NCBI GenBank assembly: GCA_949297125.1
Contig: CASFRS010000020.1
Location: forward strand, 84,817-148,816
DNA: 64,000 bases
Origin: an uncultured Bacteroidales bacterium
Lineage (GTDB): Bacteria; Bacteroidota; Bacteroidia; Bacteroidales; G3-4614
Direction of reading: 5' to 3'
Below are positions 3,864-37,143 of the stretch, in pieces. The translations under genes and the position numbers were made by a program. The notes under the pieces were generated by a model that saw nothing but the letters and a program-made list of their open reading frames with translations, ran no database searches and was not told where the DNA came from. Positions within the stretch are counted from its first letter, which is position 1. Each line of letters starts with the position of its first letter.

Positions 3864-5300
3864 ATGAAATACACCGGAAGAATCGTTATCGTTATTCTGT
3901 TGTCCCTGCCGTTTCCCCTGTTGTCCCAGACACTCGAGATGGCGAAGATACTCTATAAGAAGGGGCATTACGAGTCCGCTATCGGCACATTCCGCGAAAA
4001 TGTGAAAAGGCGCCCGAACGATGCGTCGTTGAACCAGTGGTACGGCGTGTGCCTGTATATGACGGGCAGCAAGGAAGAAGCGGTCCCGTATCTGAAAAAG
4101 GCGGCACAGAAGAAGATTCAGGAAGCCTACTATTATCTCGGGAAGATATATTACGAGAATTACAACTTCAAGGCGGCAGCCGAACAGTTTGAACTCTACC
4201 GTGAGGCGATAGAGAAGAACGGCGGGGATACCCGTGTCGCCGAGATGTGTATCGATATGGCCGACAGGGCCGCCTACATGCTTGAACGTACGGAAACTGT
4301 AACGGTAATAGATTCGATGGTAGTAGACAAGGCCGGATTCTTGCGCCATTACAAGTTGCCTCCAGAATCGTGCCGGCTTACGTATTATACCGACATATTC
4401 AAATCCGACACGCTCTCTTCCGAAGGGACGTTGTATGAAAACCAGAGACAGGACAAACTCCTCTATTCCAGAAAGGCGGAAAGCGGACGGTACATAATCG
4501 GCGAGCGTGCCCGCCTGAACGAGGACGAGTGGAGCGAAGAACAGCCGTTGCAACTCCTGACGCGCGATTCGGCCAATTATGCCTACCCGTTCCTGATGAA
4601 CGACGGGCTGACGTTGTATTACGCCTCGGACGATGATTCCTTGTCGATAGGGGGGTATGACATATTCGTAACGAGAAAGAACCTGAATACCGGCGCATAC
4701 CTTATCCCCGAGAATGTGGGGATGCCTTTCAATTCGCCGTTCAACGACTATATGATGGCCGTGGACGAGATAAACGGTGTGGGGTGGTTCGTTTCCGACC
4801 GTTACCAGCCGGAAGGCAAAGTGGCCATATACCTGTTTATACCCAACGACACGAAAGAGATATACCGCTTACCCGAATCCGAAGTGATACCGTACGCCCG
4901 GATAGTCGATATGGAAAAAACTTGGCCGCAGGATGCCGACTATACGGCCCTGCTCGAAAAAATATACAGTATAGACACCAGCAAGCCGCAAGAGCCGAAA
5001 GAAGAGTTCGTGTTTGTTGTAAAACCCGGGTTGATATACACCAACAAGGAGCAGTTCAAATCGGCCAAGGCAAAAGAACTGTTTGAGAAATCCGTAGCGG
5101 TGGAAAACGAAATAGCGGAATTGAACTATGAACTTTCACGTATGCGGATAAAATACGGCAAGGCAAAAGACAAGACGTCCGTATCTGCGTCCATACTCAA
5201 GAACGAAGAGTATCTCCTTACGCTGTATCCGCAGCCCGAAAAATACAGGAACATGAGCCGGGTGGCCGAAATAGAATATCTTAGTACACAAAAACGATAA
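3864..5300 (+). CDS. Secreted TPR plus PD40 (TolB-like beta-propeller repeat) protein with a C-terminal coiled coil
   Basis: Signal peptide MKYTGRIVIVILLSLPFPLLSQ. TPR-like N-terminus. PD40-like repeats YPFLMNDGLTLYYASDD and FNSPFNDYMMAVDEINGVGWFVSDR. Confidence 0.6.
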   Translation: MKYTGRIVIVILLSLPFPLLSQTLEMAKILYKKGHYESAIGTFRENVKRRPNDASLNQWYGVCLYMTGSKEEAVPYLKKAAQKKIQEAYYYLGKIYYENYNFKAAAEQFELYREAIEKNGGDTRVAEMCIDMADRAAYMLERTETVTVIDSMVVDKAGFLRHYKLPPESCRLTYYTDIFKSDTLSSEGTLYENQRQDKLLYSRKAESGRYIIGERARLNEDEWSEEQPLQLLTRDSANYAYPFLMNDGLTLYYASDDDSLSIGGYDIFVTRKNLNTGAYLIPENVGMPFNSPFNDYMMAVDEINGVGWFVSDRYQPEGKVAIYLFIPNDTKEIYRLPESEVIPYARIVDMEKTWPQDADYTALLEKIYSIDTSKPQEPKEEFVFVVKPGLIYTNKEQFKSAKAKELFEKSVAVENEIAELNYELSRMRIKYGKAKDKTSVSASILKNEEYLLTLYPQPEKYRNMSRVAEIEYLSTQKR

Positions 5301-5309
5301 AAAGGTAAT

Positions 5310-5777
5310 ATGGACATATTGATAATAGCAGTATTGATACTTGTAGGTTTGCTGCTGGTGATAATAGAACTTTTCCTGTTGCCCGGAGTAACCATAGCCG
5401 GCATAAGCGCACTGCTGTTTTTCGGAGGTGCGGTATATTACGCTTTCGGCATAAGCAGTGCGGCGGGAATAATATCGGCCATGATATCGGTGGCAGTCTG
5501 CATAGTGGGAGTATTGGCTTTCATGCGCTCGCGCGTCATGAATAAAATATCCCTCGACGCATCGATTAACTCGGTAGTGCCTACATCTGTTCCGCAGGAC
5601 ATCGCGCCCGGGGACAAAGGCGTTACCTTGTCGCGGCTTAACCCGATGGGGCGTGTAATGGTAAACGGGCATGAACTTGAAGGGCGCGCCCGTGAGGCGT
5701 TCCTTGACGAGAACACCGCAATAGAAGTCGAACGGGTGGAAAACACCGTTGTGATAGTGAAGAAGAGAGAAGAGTAA
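5310..5777 (+). CDS. NfeD family membrane protein
   Basis: N-terminal TM helices plus a C-terminal OB-like [27 protein letters not shown]. Sits directly upstream of floA, the usual arrangement. Confidence 0.8.
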
Positions 5778-5806
5778 AAAACAATCAAAACCAAAAAGTA
5801 AACAAT

Positions 5807-6775
5807 ATGTTGGGATTTAGTTACATGCTGTTGCTGGCAGCAATAATACTGTTGATAATATTCTTTTATTTCGTACCGTTCCTGTTGTGGATATCGGCTC
5901 GCGCATCCGGAGTGAAAATATCCGTATTGCAGTTGTTCCTTATGAGGATAAGGAAAGTCCCGCCGCAAATAATAGTAAGGGCCATGATAGAAGCCCACAA
6001 GGCCGGGTTGCAGAATATAACCCGCGATGATCTCGAAGCCCACTATCTTGCAGGAGGGCATGTCGAGCGGGTGGTACATGCTCTGGTATCGGCGGCAAAA
6101 GCCAATATCGACCTCGGTTTCAAAATGGCGACGGCAATCGACCTTGCCGGGCGCGACGTATTCGAGGCAGTGCAGATGTCGGTAAATCCCAAGGTAATCG
6201 ATACCCCTCCGGTAGTGGCGGTTGCAAAGGACGGAATACAGCTCATAGCCAAGGCCCGTGTTACGGTAAGGGCCAATATACGGCAGTTGGTAGGCGGTGC
6301 CGGCGAAGATACCGTTCTGGCAAGGGTAGGCGAGGGTATAGTTTCGTCCATCGGTTCGTCCGAATCCCACAAGACAGTTCTTGAAAACCCCGATTCAATA
6401 TCCAAGCTGGTCCTTAAGAAGGGGCTCGATTCGGGAACGGCATTTGAAATTCTCTCAATCGATATAGCCGATATTGACATAGGCAAGAACATAGGGGCCG
6501 CCCTGCAGATGGACCAGGCCGATGCCGACAAGAATATAGCCCAGGCAAAGGCCGAAGAGCGCAGGGCCATGGCAATAGCGCTGGAACAGGAGATGAAGGC
6601 CAAGGCGCAGGAGGCCCGGGCCAAGGTTATAGAGGCTGAAGCCGAAGTCCCCAAGGCCATGGCCGAGGCATTCCGTTCCGGGAATCTCGGAATAATGGAC
6701 TATTACCGTATGAAGAATATCGAGGCCGATACCAACATGCGCGACAATATTGTAAAGCCGACGTCGGCTAAATGA
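5807..6775 (+). CDS. floA: Flotillin-like protein FloA (UPF0365/YqfA)
   Basis: [28 protein letters not shown] and an alanine/glutamate-rich C-terminal coiled coil, typical of FloA. Confidence 0.9.
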
Positions 6776-6803
6776 CAGGAACTGTTTCGACGTAAGGCAT
6801 AAA

Positions 6804-6862
6804 GGAGAGAAGGCGGGTATGTGCCGGGAAAATCCCAGAGGCACATACCCGCCTTTCTCTCC
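6804..6862. terminator. Long hairpin between convergent floA and tamB (terminator-like)
   Basis: GGAGAGAAGGCGGGTATGTGCC (6804-6825) pairs with GGCACATACCCGCCTTTCTCTCC (6840-6862). This is a ~22-bp stem with one bulge and no strong T-run. Confidence 0.5.
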
Positions 6863-6880
6863 GTATCATTATACCCGTTG

Positions 6881-9800
6881 CTACTCTGCCGTGCCGGACT
6901 TTTTAGCCTTCCTCTCCCTTTTAGGGACGCTCCTTTGGAAAATCTCCCTGGCCTTTGAAAAATCCTTCTTGAACATTATGCCCACCCCTTGTGTGGTGAG
7001 GGCCGATTTTATGTAATAGTTCTTGTCGTTGTAGTGGTTGTAGGCTTTCAGCCGGAAAGTTCCCGTTTTGTTTATAAGGTATTCAAGGTCGAAATCGCCG
7101 ATAAAGCTGTTGCTGTTTACCGACCTGTCCCTGTATCCGAGGTTGCCGTTGAAAATAAGCCGGTTGTTCAGCAACTGGGAAGAAAGGATGACATCGAATT
7201 CCAGATCGGTAAAGTCGCCCTTTTCGCTTCTGAAATTAGTACCGATATTGAACTTGTCGCTAATCTGGCCCAGGATATTGTTGAGTTGCGACGACAGGGC
7301 CGATGAAGCTACCGAAGCCAGTTCGTTGCTGTGCGTTTGCCCCACGTTCATGTATTCGGGCGTATAGAACTTGTTCAGGGCAAGCAGGTAAAGGACCTGG
7401 CGGTTCATCATGTCGTCCGTACTTATTATGTTCTTCACGCGGCGGTATATATCCTGGGTGAGGGACGGGAAATTGAGGTCGAACTGGAATTCGGGACGGC
7501 GCAAATCACCGGTCAGTTGCATGGTGGTCTGAACCGGAACGGTAGTCCTGTTCAAATCACGTTCCTGCGCAAAACTTTCATCGAGGTCAAGCAGGTTGGC
7601 CTGAAGCGCATAGTATGCGCTTATATCCAGTTCGGCATTCATAGGGTCGCCCCTGAAAGTAATGGAACTTCCCGGATTAACCGTAAATTCCTTCGATATG
7701 AGGTCCTGCAGGTTAAGGTTGTATTCCCCTTTCTCCACGGTATATCTGCCGTACATCTTCATCTCCTCGTTGGTATTGTATTCGATTCTTATCGCCCCTT
7801 CGCCGTTTACCGTAATCCTGTCGTTGGTATTTGTGTCGATAACAAGCTGTACGGTGGCGGAAGGCGTTGCATCGATTTGCAGGTTCAGCCTCATCACATG
7901 CTTTATCGGGTTTAACGGAGCGAGAACCTGTACGGGTTCCTCAATCTCTACCGAAACGGAATCGGCTGCCTGTTTGTCCCTGTCCACGTACGTTATGAAC
8001 GCATATTCCCCGGCAGCGGCTTCATCCAGCAGCGCATACGTGAAATCGGAGTCCTCGTCTGTACGCATGTTTACGTCTATGTCGGTATATCGGGTATCGC
8101 CGCGTATGCTTCCTGCACCCGTAGCGTATACCTTGCCGTAATACGACGGGTTCAGTTTTTCGGTTACGTTGAAGACCAGGAAATTGTGCAGCCTCGACAT
8201 TGCAATGTCATAAGTCAGGTTTCTGAAATTCTTGTGGTTCAGTTTCATCGAAACTCTTCCCGTATGCCCTTCAGAGTCGGTAATCAGGGCGTTGTCGGCA
8301 TATATCCCGTTTTCATCGAGGAAAACGCTGTCGGTAATGGAAAAAGTCGTATTAAGGTAATCTACTCCAAAATTGAAGTCCTGTACGAATGCGCTTCCCA
8401 CGACATCCAAACTCTTGAACTTCCCCGACAATGTTATATTGCCCGTTGCATAGCCGTCTACATCCGAAAGGATGTTTTTTGTAAAAGGTCTCAGGAAAGT
8501 AAGGCTCAACCTGTTGGCGTCGAAGTCGAAGTGCAGCGACTTGCTTTGCAGGAAAATCCTTCCCAGCACTTTCGTATCCTTTATGCCGGGGTTTACCACC
8601 GTCCCGTCCAGGACAATCGCCCCGCTTTCCTTGTCCAGCCTGCTTTGCAGGGTCAGGTCGCCGAACCGGCAATAATTATAGGAAAAGTCCCTTACCTTGA
8701 AATTGTCGGTGTATATTTCCGGAATCGTCCCCTCCAAGCGGTTTACTATAATGGAGCCGGTAGCTTCGCCCCCGAAAACGATATTCTTCCTGTCCAGTAC
8801 GTCGAATATGTAGGACAAGTCTATATCCTTGAGTCTTACTTCCATAAGTTTGTCGGGATCTTTGCAGAAATCGCCGTTTATTCTCAAATACTGGTTGCTG
8901 CGCCCTATCTCCACATCATGGAACGAAATATTGTTGCCGTTTACGAAAAGAGTGGCCGGGGCAATATTCCATACGCTGTCATTGACAATGAAACTGCTCG
9001 GGTTTACGGCTATATCCAGAAGTTTCCCGTCCCTGCTGTCTATAAAATGCGTGGAAGAGCTCACCCTGCCGCTGAACAGGGTGCTGTCGGCATTGCTCCA
9101 TTCAATATCGAGCAGGGCGATATCGTCCGAAGTGGAACTGTTTACGAACCACGATGTTTCAACCCCTTTCGATGTGGTATGCGTAGAATTGACTTCCGCG
9201 TAAATGGCTTTCTGGAATTTTTCCATCCTTATATCGGTATCCTTCAGCATCAGTTTGCCCAATGTGATATCCGGTATGCCGCATATAAGGCTGAACCGTT
9301 TTGTGGAGTCGCTGTAATACCCGTCTATAACCGCGTCTTTCCTCAGGGAAAAAGGAAGTTCGAACACGTGCGATAAAAGTACAGTGTTGGGAATGTCGAA
9401 CCCGAATCGGAACACGTTTTCGTATACAGGCTTTTCCCCGTCCCCTTCCATCTGCTTTTCACCCCCTTCTTCCGATGCCAGAGCCGGGGCCGCATCGGAC
9501 AGCATAGCCATAAAACTCCTTTTAAGCGAACTGAAAAGGTATCGTCCCTCTATCTTTCCCGATATGATATTTGAGTTTAACGTTATGGTTTGCGGGTAAA
9601 CCGAATTGTGGGCCGTTATCGAGGCCGTATCACATCTGAAAACGTGCCCGTTGTTTGAAAATGCAAAACTGTTTATGTTCACCGCTCCGTCGGCATCGTC
9701 AAGCCTTTCCCCTTTGAAGTCAGCGTCTATGTCGAAATCGAGGGTAGAACCTGCGTACTTACCGGTAAGGTTGAGTGCATTTACGCGGATGTTCTCCCCT

Positions 9801-27748: not shown

Positions 27749-27849
27749 CGCTCGAATGTGTATTCTCTCTTGGAAAGTTTATGGACTTGATTTAAAAGAG
27801 GAAAAAGGATACGGTACATTCACGAGGCCTTAACAAATTAATTGAAGTG

Positions 27850-28428
27850 ATGAATCAAAGCATTAAAATCCCGATAAATACTGCAGCGATAAAAAAATAT
27901 CGGGTTTTGTTAATGATATTGTTCTGTTGTATCTCTTATTCATCTTATTCGCAAAAGATAGCGTTGAAGACGAATGCCGTGTTGTGGGCAACCGTATCGC
28001 CCAACCTGTCGGCCGAGTTTGTCGTTTCGCCGAACATGTCGGTCGATTTGTCGGCATCGTTCAATGTCTGGTCTCCGTATTCAGGCATCAAAACCGATCA
28101 CGTCTCGGTTTCTCCCGAGTTCCGTTATTGGTTCGGGCGTCCGATGGCGCAACATTTCCTCGGTGTTACTCTGTTGTACATGAATTACGATATGGGGTAT
28201 AAGGGGACGTTGTACGACGGTCAGGCCTTGGGCGGAGGTATAACCTACGGTTACGATTTCGTACTTGGAAAACATTGGAATCTGGAACTTACGGCCGGGG
28301 TCGGTGCGATGTTCCATTGGCAGTACCGCTATAAGGAAGAAGCACCCCGTCCGGCAGACTACAACAGTTTCGGGTGGAATGCGGTACCTGTAAAACTGGG
28401 TGTGAACATATCATATGTAATCTTCTAA
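27850..28428 (+). CDS. DUF3575 family outer-membrane beta-barrel protein
   Basis: Signal peptide followed by ALKTNAVLWATVSPNLSAEFVVSPNMSVDLSASFNVWSP, which matches the DUF3575 N-terminal signature. C-terminal ...NISYVIF. Confidence 0.8.
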   Translation: MNQSIKIPINTAAIKKYRVLLMILFCCISYSSYSQKIALKTNAVLWATVSPNLSAEFVVSPNMSVDLSASFNVWSPYSGIKTDHVSVSPEFRYWFGRPMAQHFLGVTLLYMNYDMGYKGTLYDGQALGGGITYGYDFVLGKHWNLELTAGVGAMFHWQYRYKEEAPRPADYNSFGWNAVPVKLGVNISYVIF

Positions 28429-28441
28429 AAAAGCGTTGTAA

Positions 28442-30445
28442 ATGAAACTTTCAATAAAGATATTGATGTCGCTTGCATTTGCATTGGCAATGCTGCCGGC
28501 AATATCGAATGCCCAAAACATACGTGTAACCGGAGTTGTGCGTGGGAACAACGGCGAGCGGATTCCCGGAGCAACGATAAAGGATTTGGGAAACCAGAGA
28601 GTTGTAGGGACTACCGACGATGACGGAAGATACTCCTTGATAATATCGCCGAATGCGACGGTTGAGTTCTCGTGTATGGGATACTCGTCCGAGAAGGAAA
28701 AGATAAAAGGACGCCTGACTATAGACGTGGAGTTGCAGACTACCGCCAATGAAATGGAGGAGATAGTCGTAACGGCCAACCTTGTGGGGACCATAATATT
28801 CGAACCGTCGGAAATAGAGGTAGTGGGAAACTATTTCCATCTGCGTACCAGATTCAAGGTCCCGTCGGCCATCATGTCGAGCGACAAGAGACTTGTTGTC
28901 CAACCTACCATATACAACGTTACCCGCAGGAAAACATTCTTCCTCCGTCCGGTAGTGTCAGACGGCCGCGAATATTTATTGACGCAAGACAGGATGTACG
29001 GTTTCGATTTGAGCCGCGATACCCTCTCCCCCTATATCCAGAAGAGCCAGATGTCCCGTCAGGGAGAGATAATAGCGTATCACGATTCGGCGTATATTGA
29101 AAACAACCGCGACGATTACCGTGCAGATGTTTTCATGTCGATAGAGGACTACAAAAAGATTATAAACGTAGATACCATATCTATAGCTCACGGAACCGTG
29201 AACCCGTTGCGGTTTTTCGATTACAACCTCGGGGCCCGCGACTTGACCGATTCGGCATATATCCCCAAACCGGAATTGCAGCTGAGGAACGATAAGGGGG
29301 AAGTAAACCTTACGTACCTGCCCGGTAAAGCCCAAATAGACGAGAGCGACCCTGAGAACGTAAGACAGCTTGAGATGCTCGGCAAAAGAATAACCTCGCT
29401 CGAGTCGAACCCCGATGCACGCCTCGAATCGGTTGCCATCAGCGGAGTTTCGTCCCCTGACGGGCGTTATGCGAGCAACGTGGTGCTGGCCAAGGAGCGT
29501 ATGGCGACAGCACGCGACAGGATACTTTCCTATGTAAGTCCCGAGCGCAGGGAGTTTCTTTCGGTAGTGTCCGATTCAAAAGTGGAAAACTGGGAACCCG
29601 TATACGAGATGATGGTAAGGGACTCGCTTACCGATAAAGCCGCCGAGGTGCGGGCCATAATAAACCGTTACCCCGACAGCCCCGACAGGCAGTTCTTGGC
29701 TATCAGCCGCCTGCCGTATTACAGAAGCCTCATAGTACCGAAGTATCTGCCGGAACTCAGGCGCGTCGAATACAACTTCGGGTACTCCATATACAGGGTC
29801 CTGACAGATGATGAGATTGAAGAACTGTACAAAAAGGACTATTCGTCGTTCTCCCGTTACGAGTTTTACCGCATGTTCATGCGGGCAAAGGACGACGTTG
29901 AGCGTGAAACCCTTTACAAGCAGGCTTTGGAAATGTACCCGAGGTTTATGCTTGCGGCCAACAACCTTGCGGCCTTGTATATAAGGCAAGGGCGTTCCGA
30001 CGAGAATCTTCTCAAGCCGTTCATAAACGAAAATGCTCCCGAAGAGGTCCTCTCCAATCAGATAGTGGCATACCTCGACCGCTGGAAATACGACAGCGCC
30101 GATTCGGTGGCGATGCTCATGAAAGAGACGGAGACGTCGGAATACATAAGGTCGGTAACGGATGCCTTGAACGGAAACTATGAAGAGGCACTGCAGACTT
30201 TCGGGGCGCAGGGCGGCATAAACGAGATTGTGCTGCTTTTGGCAATGAAGCGCAATGACGAAGCATGGGAGAAGGCCGAAGAGCTCCCCGACGAATCGGC
30301 AAGGGTAATGTACGTGAAAGCAATAATCGCAAACAGGCTCGACAAGGTCGTAGAGGCCATAAACTATATAGAAACGGCATTGGAAATGGATCCGTCATTG
30401 CGTGAAATAGCTGAAATAGATGCCGATGTAAAAGATTTGTTATAG
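28442..30445 (+). CDS. Secreted multidomain protein: CarboxypepD_reg-like N-domain, DUF3868-like core with an OmpA-like remnant motif, and C-terminal TPR repeats
   Basis: Signal peptide ...LPAISNAQN. IRVTGVVRGNNGERIPGATIKD...GRYSLIISPNATVEFSCMGY is a SusC-type N-extension. RLVVQPTIYNVTRRKTFFLRPVVSDGREY and ISGVSSPDGRYASNVVLAKERMATARDRI are DUF3868/OmpA-like. The tail is TPR-like. Confidence 0.6.
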   Translation: MKLSIKILMSLAFALAMLPAISNAQNIRVTGVVRGNNGERIPGATIKDLGNQRVVGTTDDDGRYSLIISPNATVEFSCMGYSSEKEKIKGRLTIDVELQTTANEMEEIVVTANLVGTIIFEPSEIEVVGNYFHLRTRFKVPSAIMSSDKRLVVQPTIYNVTRRKTFFLRPVVSDGREYLLTQDRMYGFDLSRDTLSPYIQKSQMSRQGEIIAYHDSAYIENNRDDYRADVFMSIEDYKKIINVDTISIAHGTVNPLRFFDYNLGARDLTDSAYIPKPELQLRNDKGEVNLTYLPGKAQIDESDPENVRQLEMLGKRITSLESNPDARLESVAISGVSSPDGRYASNVVLAKERMATARDRILSYVSPERREFLSVVSDSKVENWEPVYEMMVRDSLTDKAAEVRAIINRYPDSPDRQFLAISRLPYYRSLIVPKYLPELRRVEYNFGYSIYRVLTDDEIEELYKKDYSSFSRYEFYRMFMRAKDDVERETLYKQALEMYPRFMLAANNLAALYIRQGRSDENLLKPFINENAPEEVLSNQIVAYLDRWKYDSADSVAMLMKETETSEYIRSVTDALNGNYEEALQTFGAQGGINEIVLLLAMKRNDEAWEKAEELPDESARVMYVKAIIANRLDKVVEAINYIETALEMDPSLREIAEIDADVKDLL

Positions 30446-30449
30446 AGAG

Positions 30450-33329
30450 ATGAAGAATAGATATAAAAAAACCGGAATGATAAACACAAAACGGATATCG
30501 GCATATATCCTGTTCGTATGTTTTGCCGTATCCGGAGCAACCGCCCAGTTCAATGCTCTCGACTATCGTTTGCAGAAACGTCCGAGATTGGAAAAATTCG
30601 ACTCGGATAATTTCTTCGACAATACTTTCGTAAGCGGATCATTCGGTGTGCAGTTCAATACATCGGGCAACAAGGCGGCAAGAGATGCCGGGCCGGTAGC
30701 GCGTTACTACTTCGGCAAATGGTTTACCCCTGTCATAGGTGCCCGTTTCGGTTTGGACATGTCGATATTGAGTAACGAAGGGTACAGCACCCATGCACTG
30801 TTCGGTTTCAATCTCGATTATCTGGCAAACATAAGTGCGTTTGTTGCCGGATATGACCCAGACAGGCTCTTTGACCTGTACGGTTTCGTAGGCGCAACCT
30901 ACAAGCGTTCTTTCCGGTACGGATACGGGACCAATCTGTTTGGCGGCTCTTTCGGACTGCAGGGTAATTTCAATATCAACAGGCTGATAAGCGTATATCT
31001 GGAACCGCGTGTTACAATAGCAAATGACGGCTACAACGAACGCTACGTAGAGCGCAAGTTCGATGTACTGCCCGAAGTCTCCGTCGGCCTTGCCTACAAG
31101 ATGCAGCCCCTGCCGCGCACGTACGTAACCAAAGCGGAGAAGACGACCTTTAAGGAGAACATCTTTTTCTCGTTTGGAGCAGGTATACAGCGTCCCCTTT
31201 CAAATATGGCGCCCATATATGCAAATGAAATAAAACTCGGCCCGGCAGGAATGATTGCATTCGGAGGCTGGTTCAAGCACGTGCATGGTGTCAGACTTTC
31301 CGCATACGCAGGTTATGCCGATTATTCCGGCGAAAATCTGGTGAGCGACAACAAACTGGGTTCAGCCATATTGCGTGCCGACTATATGATAAATTACAGC
31401 AATGTGTTCGGCGGATATGACGAGGGCCGGCTCTTCGACCTGATAGGGACGTTCGGTCCCGAACTGGCTTTCTCCGGACAGACCGGAACGAAATGGAAAA
31501 TGTCGGCAGGTTTGGGTATCGGGTTGCAGGGCAACTTCAGGATAACCCCGGCGCTGGATATATTCTTAGAGCCGCGTATCTCTTTCTATACCACCAACTA
31601 CACCAACGGGAACATAAACCGTTACGACTCGAACGCATCCTTGCTTATGGGTCTGACCTATCACAGTGTGGCAAAGGAGTACAGGAAAGACAATGACGAA
31701 TTTGAGAAGAAATCGGTTGCGGACCGGATGTTCGTCTCCATATCGGCCGGTGCAGGAGCCAGATTCTCCCGTATAAAAGAAAACCTCAACGGAGGGAACA
31801 ACCTTGCCGGGAAAGTAACCATCGGGCTCGGCACCTGGTTTACTCCGGTATCCGGTATCCAGATTACGGGGGGGACGCTGCTGTACGGGACCAATTACGA
31901 CTATGGTGCGTATTACCGGGCGAGAAACCTGTTGCTGGGAGTGGATTACCTCTTCAACATGACAAATGCCGTACGCGGATACAAGGATGACCGCTTCTTT
32001 GAGTTGATAGCTGCCGGAGGAATAGGCGTAATGTATAATCACAGCATATTCCGCCCCGTGCTGCAAACTTCGATGAAAGCGAACTTCAACCTGAAAAAGA
32101 ACTGGAGCGTATTCGTAGAGCCTCAGGCATTGTGGGCAATGCAGCGGGGTATCCTGACGGGTTCGGTATCGACACGAAAGTCGGTCATGTTGACGGGAAG
32201 TATAGGAACATCGTACAGTATGCGCGGATACGACCCTGTTTCGCTCTACGCATATAAGGAAGGGGAAGGCTCCAACATGTTTTTCTCCATTGCCGGAGGA
32301 TTCGGCGGGATAATCGATAACGGGATGTTCAGCAATCTGAAGGAGAAGATTTCCCCTGCCGGACGCCTGTCGTTAGGAAACTGGGTTACGCCCCTTGCCG
32401 GTTGGCGTTTGAGTTTCATGAGCGAACGGATAAAGCAGACCCGTACGGAAAACTACATAACGCATGGAGGAATAGGCGGGGAGTTTATGCTCAACCTCAC
32501 CAATGCGGCAATAGGTTATAACCCCGACAGGTTCTTCAACATGTATGCAATGGCCGGTGTGCATGCCGGGTTCTCCATTGTAGACCACAGCATGCGTTTC
32601 ATCCCCGGTTTTACCGGAGGTGTGCAGGCTTCATTCAAGGTAGCTCCCAGTTTCAGCCTTTTCCTCGAACCCCAGCTTGCGATATATCTGAATAAGTTCG
32701 ACGGGGAGAACCGGCAGAAATCGGTAGGGATGATATATGCCGGTCTGACCTACTCCATAAACAAGCGGGACAGGTATGCAAAAGAGATAGATGCACGCCT
32801 CGATAAGCCCAATTTCATCTCTGTCGGTGGCGGGATAGGGTTGTGGGGAAACACCCTTATGTCGTCGTTCGGAGGTTTCAAGGACAAACTTGTCTATTCG
32901 GCCGATATGGCATACGGACGCTGGATAACGCCGGTGCACGGTTTCAGGTTGAATGCCGAATATACCAGAATATACAAGCCGTACCAGTATGTAGGGGAAA
33001 AGATAGATATGATATCGGGTCGGGCCGACTACATGTTGAACCTTACCAATATGTTTGCCGGCAACAACGACAGCCGTCTGTTCGAGGCAATAGCATTCGT
33101 CGGGGCAGGTGCCGTTGCGCCAGTAAAGAAGAGCGACGATTACCGCGACCTCAAGGTTACGTATACGGCGGCGTTCGGCCTTCAGGCAAAATTCAACCTG
33201 TCCGACAGGTTCGATATATTCATCGAGCCTAAGGGAACATTCTACGGAGATGCCGTGGACGGGTATTCCTCAAGGGCGAAATTCGATGCTACGGCATCGG
33301 TCCTTGCAGGTTTCAACTGCAAGTTCTGA
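30450..33329 (+). CDS. Secreted 959-aa protein composed of five tandem 8-strand beta-barrel-like (OMP_b-brl-type) modules
   Basis: Signal peptide KRISAYILFVCFAVSGATAQ. Five colinear repeats share the W.TP..G.R, DY..N.(S/T)N...GY...R.F and GLQ..F......(I/V/L)(F/Y)(L/V/I)EP motifs. The protein ends ...GFNCKF, a C-terminal Phe. Confidence 0.6.
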   Translation: MKNRYKKTGMINTKRISAYILFVCFAVSGATAQFNALDYRLQKRPRLEKFDSDNFFDNTFVSGSFGVQFNTSGNKAARDAGPVARYYFGKWFTPVIGARFGLDMSILSNEGYSTHALFGFNLDYLANISAFVAGYDPDRLFDLYGFVGATYKRSFRYGYGTNLFGGSFGLQGNFNINRLISVYLEPRVTIANDGYNERYVERKFDVLPEVSVGLAYKMQPLPRTYVTKAEKTTFKENIFFSFGAGIQRPLSNMAPIYANEIKLGPAGMIAFGGWFKHVHGVRLSAYAGYADYSGENLVSDNKLGSAILRADYMINYSNVFGGYDEGRLFDLIGTFGPELAFSGQTGTKWKMSAGLGIGLQGNFRITPALDIFLEPRISFYTTNYTNGNINRYDSNASLLMGLTYHSVAKEYRKDNDEFEKKSVADRMFVSISAGAGARFSRIKENLNGGNNLAGKVTIGLGTWFTPVSGIQITGGTLLYGTNYDYGAYYRARNLLLGVDYLFNMTNAVRGYKDDRFFELIAAGGIGVMYNHSIFRPVLQTSMKANFNLKKNWSVFVEPQALWAMQRGILTGSVSTRKSVMLTGSIGTSYSMRGYDPVSLYAYKEGEGSNMFFSIAGGFGGIIDNGMFSNLKEKISPAGRLSLGNWVTPLAGWRLSFMSERIKQTRTENYITHGGIGGEFMLNLTNAAIGYNPDRFFNMYAMAGVHAGFSIVDHSMRFIPGFTGGVQASFKVAPSFSLFLEPQLAIYLNKFDGENRQKSVGMIYAGLTYSINKRDRYAKEIDARLDKPNFISVGGGIGLWGNTLMSSFGGFKDKLVYSADMAYGRWITPVHGFRLNAEYTRIYKPYQYVGEKIDMISGRADYMLNLTNMFAGNNDSRLFEAIAFVGAGAVAPVKKSDDYRDLKVTYTAAFGLQAKFNLSDRFDIFIEPKGTFYGDAVDGYSSRAKFDATASVLAGFNCKF
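30621..33326 (+). repeat. Five tandem protein-level repeats (~500-550 nt period) inside the 959-aa ORF
   Basis: Repeat units at about 30621-31100, 31158-31664, 31725-32219, 32274-32759 and 32811-33326, each carrying the same ordered motif set. Confidence 0.8.
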
Positions 33330-33389
33330 CAACATAAACAATCGCCTGCATTCCCGGAAATCAGGAAGAGGGTGCGTGTTATATAAGAA

Positions 33390-33435
33390 GCGTTGCCCGC
33401 ATGTGAAAATTTCTCGCATGCGGGCAACGCTTTTT
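33390..33435 (+). terminator. Rho-independent terminator of the DUF3575 three-gene locus
   Basis: GCGTTGCCCGCATG (33390-33403) pairs perfectly with CATGCGGGCAACGC (33417-33430), followed by TTTTT. Confidence 0.85.
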
Positions 33436-33538: not shown

Positions 33539-33754
33539 ATGAAACGGATATTGGCCCCGGTATTCGATTTTTATATCGAAGGGTTCAGAAGCATGACGAC
33601 AGGTAAAATATTATGGACTATAATCCTTGTGAAACTGGCTATAATGTTTTTTATAATCTGGCCTGTCTGTAATGCCGGTGTACCTCCCGGACGGCGGACG
33701 GCAGAGGGAAATTCCGTGCAGATATATGAAGAACTGGTAGAAAGATGCAGATAA
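33539..33754 (+). CDS. DUF4492 small membrane protein (precedes cydA in Bacteroidetes)
   Basis: MKRILAPVFDFYIEGFRSMTTGKILWTIILVKLAIMFFII. Ends 5 nt upstream of cydA. Confidence 0.75.
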   Translation: MKRILAPVFDFYIEGFRSMTTGKILWTIILVKLAIMFFIIWPVCNAGVPPGRRTAEGNSVQIYEELVERCR

Positions 33755-33758
33755 GATT

Positions 33759-36519: not shown

Positions 36520-37143
36520 TCAGAATTTTACTCTGACGCCGGCAATAGCACTTCCGGCATTGCCTATTCCGGCTTCCATGAAGAATGCAGTTTTCTTGCC
36601 GACTTCAATGCCTATCGGCGAGAACTGGTATGCAAGCATGAAATCGGTATTGCATTTCCTTTCCGTAAGACCTGGGGTGCTGCCGGTATGTACGGCGTTG
36701 TAAAAATCGATACAAAGGCCTACCCCTACGGTGGTGTACAGCGTAAACTTTTCTTTCTCAATCCAGTTGAGTTTTACTTTGGGCATTATGCTCAAAAAGT
36801 TGTTGCATTCATTTTCTACAAAAGTATTGTTGTAGTTGAATGTAACATCCTTTTTGGAATAGGCATATATCACGCCTACGCCCAAACCTATCCTTTTGTT
36901 GAGCCTGAAGTTGTAATCGAGGTTTACTGCGCCGTAATGCGAACTGTTGGAGCGGTTGAGCGATTTGAAGTCGTCAGGATAATCAACTGCGTTGGTAAAT
37001 GCTCCGGCCCACTCCGAAACAGGCATTACGCCGTATCCTATCGAAAACTCATGGCGGTCAATATTCTTGTCCCGCGTTTTTGCGGCAGCACCCTGGCATA
37101 ACAGCAGTGCGACAACCGCCGATAACAGGAAATATCTGTTCAT
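36520..37143 (-). CDS. Small outer-membrane beta-barrel protein (porin-family / OmpW-like)
   Basis: Signal peptide MNRYFLLSAVVALLLCQGAAA, alternating beta-strand pattern, C-terminal ...GVRVKF. Confidence 0.7.
   Translation of the reverse strand: MNRYFLLSAVVALLLCQGAAAKTRDKNIDRHEFSIGYGVMPVSEWAGAFTNAVDYPDDFKSLNRSNSSHYGAVNLDYNFRLNKRIGLGVGVIYAYSKKDVTFNYNNTFVENECNNFLSIMPKVKLNWIEKEKFTLYTTVGVGLCIDFYNAVHTGSTPGLTERKCNTDFMLAYQFSPIGIEVGKKTAFFMEAGIGNAGSAIAGVRVKF

Follow-up and report, generated by a model that had tools for sequence, protein, structure and literature searches.

A predicted five-barrel outer-membrane protein of the poly-8 kind and its gene cassette in an uncultured Bacteroidales bacterium

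The locus and its repeat protein

The stretch of DNA analysed here (the window) comprises 64,000 nucleotides from a contig of an uncultured Bacteroidales bacterium (GenBank assembly GCA_949297125.1, contig CASFRS010000020.1). It carries a cassette of three genes read in the same direction (Table 1). Gene 1 encodes a DUF3575 protein, gene 2 a protein that we call MID, and gene 3 a protein that very probably consists of five separate OmpA-type eight-stranded β-barrels on one chain. By comparison of its sequence with a published description (Solan et al., 2021; PMC8346858), the product of gene 3 is assigned to the poly-8 kind of Bacteroidetes multibarrel outer-membrane proteins (OMPs), and we refer to it as poly-8.

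The open reading frame (ORF) of poly-8 starts with ATG, is intact and finishes with ...AGFNCKF*; some database copies of the protein are 950 residues long and start instead at Met10. The signal peptide, which ends ...FVCFAVSGATAQ, is of the Sec type without a lipobox and appears as an N-terminal helix in the full-length AlphaFold model. In the periplasmic segment that follows, the motif NALDYxLQKR is the most conserved pattern, picked automatically by the software used; in an alignment of 23 five-barrel homologues Leu37, Leu41 and Gln42 are invariant and Lys43 and Arg44 are conserved in at least 90%. It was not found in the single-barrel OmpA relatives discussed below. Since a strict regular expression for the LQKR motif matches only 57 of the 191 family members, we take it to be a feature of a sub-family and not of the whole family. 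Scans of the entire ORF against Pfam and NCBIfam gave nothing at threshold, and when the modules were searched against the PDB, by sequence and by profile, no match was significant.

Table 1. Predicted features of the three-gene cassette (positions in the window)
Feature	Position	Strand	Remarks
Gene 1, DUF3575 protein	27847..28428	+	193 aa; PF12099, E 1.4e-50; ends ...YVIF
Gene 2, MID	28442..30445	+	667 aa; CarbopepD_reg_2, E 6e-11, and TPR matches (Pfam)
Gene 3, poly-8 multibarrel outer-membrane protein	30450..33329	+	959 aa; last gene of the cassette
Signal peptide of poly-8, aa 1-33	30450..30548	+	...SGATAQ/F; Sec/signal peptidase I type; read from sequence
N-terminal periplasmic segment of poly-8	30549..30620	+	Holds the sub-family motif NALDYxLQKR
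Barrel 1, aa 58-217	30621..31100	+	8 strands; BLAST, HMM, AlphaFold, Foldseek
Barrel 2, aa 237-405	31158..31664	+	8 strands; BLAST, HMM, AlphaFold
Barrel 3, aa 426-590	31725..32219	+	8 strands; BLAST, HMM, AlphaFold
Barrel 4, aa 609-770	32274..32759	+	8 strands; BLAST, HMM, AlphaFold
Barrel 5, aa 788-959	32811..33326	+	8 strands; C-terminal β-signal ...AGFNCKF
Intrinsic terminator hairpin	33385..33434	+	22-bp stem followed by a U-run; lies some 55 nt past the stop codon of poly-8

An original prediction, made from the letters of the window without database searches, had described poly-8 as five tandem copies of one module with a fixed order of motifs, about eight strands to the module and a terminal phenylalanine acting as the OMP β-signal. 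All of this is borne out. The five homologous copies are each about 165 residues long, and in a self-BLAST search every segment recovers the other four at 24-32% identity and 41-68 bits. The periodicity also holds statistically, with all ten module pairs giving Smith-Waterman scores 11-28 standard deviations above those of 200 composition-preserving shuffles, none of which reaches the true score. The envelopes assigned by a hidden Markov model (HMM) of the module, residues 58-217, 237-405, 426-590, 609-769 and 788-958, are near-identical to the boundaries first proposed. The motifs correspond to columns conserved throughout the family, which in an alignment of 74 modules are F3, G9, GKWFTPxxGxR, DYxxNxT...GYxPDRxF, GLQxxF...EP and GxxY. 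Eight strands per module are present in the AlphaFold models of both the full-length chain, computed with a 23-sequence alignment, and the single module.

The canonical G-x-x-[YF]-x-F closes the last barrel, and in terminal modules of the family the glycine is present in 100%, Tyr or Phe in 91% and the final Phe in 85%. A signal peptide together with a C-terminal β-signal ending in Phe are the sequence features of a substrate of the β-barrel assembly machinery (BAM). Each of the internal barrels also closes with a β-signal-like ending, G-φ-x-[YF]-x-[LFMIV], and BAM may recognise and insert the poly-8 barrels one after another. How BAM handles such chains was posed as a question by Solan et al. 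(PMC8346858), and the per-barrel endings bear on whether insertion proceeds barrel by barrel.

Fold, closure and parentage of the modules

Modelled alone, with the alignment of 74 modules, a single module forms a closed eight-stranded barrel with a predicted local distance difference test score (pLDDT) of 93.6 and a predicted template-modelling score (pTM) of 0.86. A short helix follows strand 4. In Foldseek comparisons this model superposes on an OmpA model with a template-modelling score (TM) of 0.79 (TMt 0.77 to 1qjp) and on NspA with 0.70/0.72; OmpX, OmpW, Ail and OprF-N are matched as well, the range over OmpA, NspA, OmpX and OmpW being 0.6-0.79. Among solved structures, the top-ranking matches are without exception small integral outer-membrane barrels. 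The module has in common with E. coli OmpA, NspA, OmpX, Ail and OmpW the fold and a lumen that is charged and not an open pore; these are single barrels with 11-18% identity to it, and they differ from the poly-8 modules in that the latter conserve the short helix in the periplasmic turn between strands 4 and 5 (S4-S5).

The closed model, the structural matches, the coevolution analysis described below and homology to the OmpA family support the suggestion in the original prediction that the modules are barrels of OmpX or OmpW size. Its proposed relationship to Pfam family PF13505 (OMP_b-brl) stands in part. Matches do occur, with module 1 scoring 15.6 bits, but they fall short of the gathering threshold of 28.7 bits, and just 12 of the 74 family modules give even a sub-threshold match (best E 5.7e-4). 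A relationship to DUF3575, also raised there, finds no backing: two tests of the modules against the neighbouring DUF3575 protein (PF12099) detected no similarity, the hhalign probability being 0.6-1.2%.

The column profile of the module displays the dyad hydrophobic pattern of a transmembrane barrel, with an aromatic girdle at one rim, the periplasmic, formed by F3, W36/F37, Y70, F87, F120 and Y162. Charged or polar residues facing the lumen are conserved (R44 in 89%, D69 in 76%, Q117 in 67% and E131 in 88%, in module-profile numbering), and the lumen positions coevolve in direct-coupling analysis (DCA) as the pairs 44-131, 44-69, 69-113 and 44-115. Because this charge network is both conserved and coevolving, the lumens are considered to be plugged, as in OmpA, and not channels. 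The poly-8 barrels are thus plugged anchors and not pores.

Mean-field DCA took as input 1,013 modules of 191 family members (effective number 888) and recovers all seven hairpin ladders of the module. Strands S1 and S8 are joined by the contacts 5-161 and 9-159, S1 and S7 by 7-129, and S2 and S8 by 35-161 and 34-159. The cross-lumen S3-S7 pair 44-131 is the seventh strongest overall. Strands four apart touch only in a narrow closed barrel, so that these cross-lumen contacts argue for one. In a swap control strand 8 was taken from the preceding module: the S8 contacts above the top-L threshold then number 7 instead of 23, neither the 5-161 contact nor the S7-S8 ladder is kept, and no ladder is seen between S8 of module i-1 and S1 of module i. 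The coevolution indicates that each barrel closes on itself and that neighbouring barrels are not joined. Two results sit less well with separate barrels. Firstly, the full-length model is just moderate, with pLDDT 74.6 and pTM 0.45. Secondly, three pairs involving column 159, an invariant-glycine column, persist in the swap control; since they survive it, some of the signal for S8 does not reflect structure.

The original prediction had offered, as the alternative to five small barrels, a single barrel of about 40 strands built from all five modules, which would be larger than SprA or LptD. We consider this very improbable, and it was rejected. Such an assembly has parallels: tandem OmpX with a 2-residue linker can form one larger barrel (Arnold et al., as far as cited in PMC8346858), and single barrels with 38 and with 40 strands are among the predictions that Solan et al. 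made for other families (PMC8346858). The full-length model of poly-8 also finds large barrels in Foldseek when ranked by E-value, but the TM values are only 0.07-0.12 with root-mean-square deviations above 30 Å, and the matches reflect meander topology only. A lone module already closes on itself, and the S3-S7, S1-S7 and S2-S8 contacts across the lumen are impossible in a wide barrel. Nor does DCA contain any signal for a hairpin between S8 of one module and S1 of the next. The 822 linkers between barrels in the family, which are taken to be periplasmic, have a median length of 19 residues (5th-95th percentile 15-32). Finally, family members differ by whole modules, with copy numbers of 2 to 15, and the module has homologues that are true single barrels. 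That the ORF is mis-called or encodes a soluble, non-membrane β-repeat protein, to which the want of any Pfam family at threshold might point, can be practically dismissed in view of the signal peptide and C-terminal β-signal, the dyad pattern with its aromatic girdle, the thousands of conserved homologues that preserve the reading frame, and the closest structures and homologues, which are all integral OMP barrels and OmpA-family barrels, respectively.

The separate barrels of poly-8 can be traced to a parent. A scan of one genome per species found proteins of about 390 residues with a single module. Their first 170 or so residues are matched by the module HMM along its whole length (E 1e-20 to 1e-34), genuine PF00691 OmpA domains form the C-termini, and hhalign aligns the module family with these barrels over 164 columns at 99.9% probability (E 3.4e-36). 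On account of this end-to-end profile homology, the poly-8 modules are amplified copies of the Bacteroidales OmpA barrel. Both groups carry the motifs GKWFTPxxGxR, D..xNLxxLxxGYNPDRxF and GL..F...D..E.R. In the OmpA-family proteins (for example those at loci L057, L081 and L054) a single barrel, with longer loops on the extracellular side, shares its chain with the peptidoglycan-binding domain, whereas poly-8 has five barrels; the 959-residue chain ends with barrel 5 and has no PF00691 match, and a degenerate OmpA_C-like domain sits on its neighbour MID.

At locus L054 of Phocaeicola plebeius a single-barrel OmpA-family gene (5567-6751) lies directly 3' of a three-barrel poly-8 gene, such that the parent and amplified forms of the barrel adjoin each other. 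Single-barrel OmpA homologues were also encountered in three bins labelled as the Gram-positive Oscillospiraceae, Christensenellaceae and Clostridiaceae (L073, L078 and L079), the contigs of which are probably mis-binned Bacteroidales.

Family, cassette and periplasmic partner

Knowing of no natural concatenation of five barrels, the original prediction had allowed that the architecture might be undescribed. It is in fact known, in computational form, from the account of multibarrel OMPs by Solan et al. in PNAS (PMC8346858). Their poly-8 superfamily is restricted to Bacteroidetes and comprises 289 proteins of 2-11 barrels, mainly from Bacteroides and Prevotella. It evolves by amplification and deletion of barrels, its linkers are about 20 residues long and its contact maps favour separate barrels (PMC8346858). 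The window protein conforms to this description. Five full-length, non-overlapping matches to an eight-stranded barrel lie on one chain, the median linker of 19 residues compares with the published value of about 20, contacts are lost on the S8 swap with the exception of the non-specific column-159 pairs, and all multi-module loci are in Bacteroidales genomes or metagenome-assembled genomes.

Homologues with other copy numbers, the search for which had been advised at the outset, are plentiful. A word-indexed search returned 49, all unnamed and with 3-7 modules, and an exhaustive profile search gave 3,097 cluster representatives, 431 of them at E <= 1e-30. Among the best 150 of the 3,097 together with the first set of 49, the number of barrels is 3-15 and most often 4, 5 or 7; a two-module form is present at L069. 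One protein (P0052) has 15 barrels in 2,889 residues. The family seen here, with about 3,100 cluster representatives and a range of 2-15 barrels, compares with the 2-11 barrels and 289 proteins of Solan et al., who gave poly-8 no gene context, parent single-barrel family or β-signal analysis. These are supplied here, and what is new is the conserved cassette context, the parent OmpA barrel, the β-signal-like endings of individual barrels and the network of lumen charges.

Modules 1-5 of the window protein pair one-to-one with modules 1-5 of its homologues, down to about 40% identity. Seven-barrel homologues (P0014, and L017 at 4010-7909) read 1-2-3-4-3-4-5, a tandem duplication of the 3-4 pair. 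The closest relative of the window protein is from Candidatus Caccoplasma merdipullorum (86%). Among the cultured carriers are Coprobacter, Bacteroides thetaiotaomicron, B. luti, B. reticulotermitis and P. plebeius, and the B. thetaiotaomicron locus (L039) is a homologous cassette. GfcD/YjbH and other heterologous multibarrels likewise join outer-membrane barrels into one chain and belong to dedicated operons with periplasmic partners. GfcD/YjbH differs from poly-8, being a proteobacterial protein of capsule export with two different 12-stranded barrels and a globular domain between them.

The genes of the cassette are closely spaced, with 13 nt between gene 1 and the MID gene and 4 nt between the latter and poly-8. 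Gene 1, which more probably begins with the ATG at 27850, also gives weak OMP_b-brl and autotransporter-barrel matches, and its product is predicted to be a small outer-membrane β-barrel. The terminator hairpin was missed by a consensus scan; RNA folding assigns it -38.7 kcal/mol (z -9.6), and none of 200 shuffles was as stable. It closes the three-gene unit. The triad DUF3575-MID-poly-8 recurs with unrelated flanks at L001-L005 and is present at about 50 loci, which is practically every multi-module locus where the sequence reaches far enough upstream, whereas single-barrel OmpA genes are without DUF3575 or MID neighbours. Variants exist in which the order is MID, poly-8 and then DUF3575 (L021, at 6865-7425, L022 and L033) or in which DUF3575 genes are in tandem (L051 and L053). 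In the complete genome of B. finegoldii JCM 13345 (L048), MID and poly-8 are fragmented into multiple ORFs in sequence free of N runs, and the cassette there is either pseudogenised or affected by sequencing frameshifts.

MID is more conserved than poly-8; at L007, for example, the identities are 75% and 53%, respectively. Its layout is a signal peptide, a SusC-type N-terminal extension (NTE) resembling CarboxypepD_reg, a TonB-box-like motif (residues 104-112, EMEEIVVTA), a conserved stretch that matches no family (residues ~117-290), the degenerate OmpA_C-like domain (residues ~288-378) and a TPR/helical C-terminus. A profile of 21 MID sequences aligns with SusC homologues, among them 8aa4_A and 5t3r_D, over the signal peptide, NTE and TonB box (E 1e-19), with MID 'eLeevvvtak' opposite SusC 'vLDEVVVVGY'. 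In Bt1763 the TonB box DEVVVTG lies directly after the NTE and has been shown by experiment to be required (PMC7782687). The signal peptide, NTE and a segment L-x-E-V-V-V-x-[AG] are thus common to MID and SusC-type transporters such as Bt1763. In MID, however, no Plug or TonB_dep_Rec match was detected and the PDB profile match ends at residue 117; since it is without the plug and the 22-stranded barrel, MID is not a transporter. A TonB box on a periplasmic protein that is not a transporter is unusual. The segment could point to a coupling with the inner membrane.

The nearest characterised logic in the phylum is that of PorE-PorP, from Porphyromonas gingivalis's type IX secretion system (T9SS). 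This is a Bacteroidota precedent for a barrel working with a periplasmic TPR/CRD/OmpA_C protein, and there peptidoglycan binding is essential (PMC12773672). MID differs from PorE in the order of domains, in having neither a WD40 domain nor a lipobox and in not keeping the peptidoglycan-binding Asp. The barrels of the cassette are of the OmpA type and DUF3575, not PorP/SprF, and no T9SS genes are nearby.

Possible function and flanking genes

The chances of our explanation as a whole, a five-barrel Sec-exported OMP that serves in envelope tethering, seem to us evenly balanced. The functional part by itself, that poly-8 is the membrane-embedded anchor of an envelope-tethering complex, is put forward tentatively. 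The row of poly-8 barrels together with the DUF3575 barrel would form a docking platform in the outer membrane for MID, and MID would connect that membrane with the cell wall, with an inner-membrane protein of the TonB family, or with both. The arrangement might be seen as a 'split' and amplified OmpA, its barrel multiplied and its periplasmic half transferred to a separate, elaborated polypeptide; the role would be tethering or organisation of the envelope rather than transport. A bolder version, which we regard as doubtful, is that the cassette encodes a previously unrecognised envelope machine coupled to the proton-motive force, with a rail of plugged barrels, from poly-8 and DUF3575, and with a genuine TonB box on MID next to a domain resembling those that bind the cell wall. 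Its logic would be analogous to that of Tol-Pal with different parts: the assembly would be mechanically coupled to the inner membrane via a TonB-family protein, and the number of barrels would determine how large or how multivalent it is.

Several findings weigh against envelope tethering. The likeness of the MID segment to a TonB box is at the level of sequence only. The OmpA_C-like region matches the OmpA domains of the single-barrel relatives weakly (hhalign 47%, E 2e-4), with weak PF00691 matches in 7 of 21 MID homologues, and although Asn346 and Arg353 are invariant, the position of the canonical peptidoglycan-binding Asp is occupied by an invariant serine, Ser338. For these two reasons, the weak match and the serine, binding of MID to the cell wall is doubtful. 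In a divergent branch of the family, L055 encodes a 1,566-residue, seven-barrel protein with no recognisable MID gene at the locus, and some divergent branches adjoin fimbrillin or polysaccharide genes, which hints at other roles. Neither a solved structure nor a function or follow-up for poly-8 was found in the literature searched, and the names of relatives in databases are all 'hypothetical', 'TPR' or 'carboxypeptidase regulatory-like'.

Speculation on function by Solan et al. centred on avidity and adhesion (PMC8346858). In such a multivalent adhesin, proposed for the poly-8 proteins of Bacteroides and Prevotella, many similar surface loops would bind gut polysaccharides or host surfaces. 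The closest folds do include the adhesins and invasins OmpX, Ail, NspA and OpcA, and variation in the module falls at the extracellular strand ends, which is what selection on exposed surfaces would be expected to produce. We nevertheless think an adhesin unlikely. The extracellular loops in the module model are short, of about 10, 3, 2 and 11 residues, and the single-barrel OmpA relatives carry insertions of 9-22 residues at these loops. Conservation is concentrated at the opposite, periplasmic rim, where the aromatic girdle, the LQKR motif and the S4-S5 helix DYxxNxT..GYxPDRxF are all located; the helix coevolves with other periplasmic turns. The conserved partners, moreover, include a large periplasmic protein.

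Rather improbable, too, is an outer-membrane platform for a surface polymer, which would anchor or assemble type V pili or a capsular polysaccharide or exopolysaccharide. DUF3575 genes accompany Mfa1/DUF3868 fimbrial loci such as BT4227-BT4236 of B. thetaiotaomicron (PMC10434189), and at three loci the cassette lies directly 3' of Mfa_like_1 fimbrillin genes on the same strand (L004, 1-5036; L055, 587-3023; L069, 45-1046), but these fimbrial neighbours are limited to a divergent branch. A polysaccharide-synthesis gene on the same strand is directly upstream at four others (L045, 92-1144; L047, 21-1139; L017, 297-1340; L054, 166-813), the families being Polysacc_synt_2, NTP_transferase and Bac_transf. 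Bacteroidales genomes are rich in such loci, however, and this adjacency may be due to chance. The other multibarrels GfcD/YjbH do belong to capsule operons, yet plugged eight-stranded barrels cannot themselves export a polymer. In the window and at most loci the flanking genes are unrelated housekeeping genes, with a sigma-54 activator, LptE and SecG upstream and cytochrome bd downstream.

Multibarrel OMPs have so far been a purely computational class, of which the window provides a clean and well-supported five-barrel member. The parentage of the barrels, the partners in the cassette and the per-barrel endings make the function and biogenesis of multibarrel proteins testable in B. thetaiotaomicron. 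The family is abundant in gut Bacteroidales, and a role in envelope stability, vesiculation or surface interactions could matter for the biology of the microbiome.

With respect to expression, an invertible promoter was sought 5' of gene 1 and just two weak inverted repeats were found, both outside the promoter region; a sigma-70 scan remained at background level, its consensus being unsuited to Bacteroidetes promoters. BT3061, a DUF3575 gene of B. thetaiotaomicron, could not be linked to the cassette.

Two further ORFs lie downstream. On the reverse strand 3' of cydB, positions 36520-37143 encode 207 residues; the counterpart at L001 carries PF13505/PF13568 OMP_b-brl, and the module HMM gave no match to the 207-residue product at E < 1e-2. 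It is predicted to be a small barrel unrelated to the poly-8 modules. Just 5' of cydA, a small ORF at 33594-33755 (MTTGKILWTIILVKLAIMFF...) occupies the same position as a 74-residue DUF4492 gene at L001 and probably encodes a small membrane protein associated with cytochrome bd.

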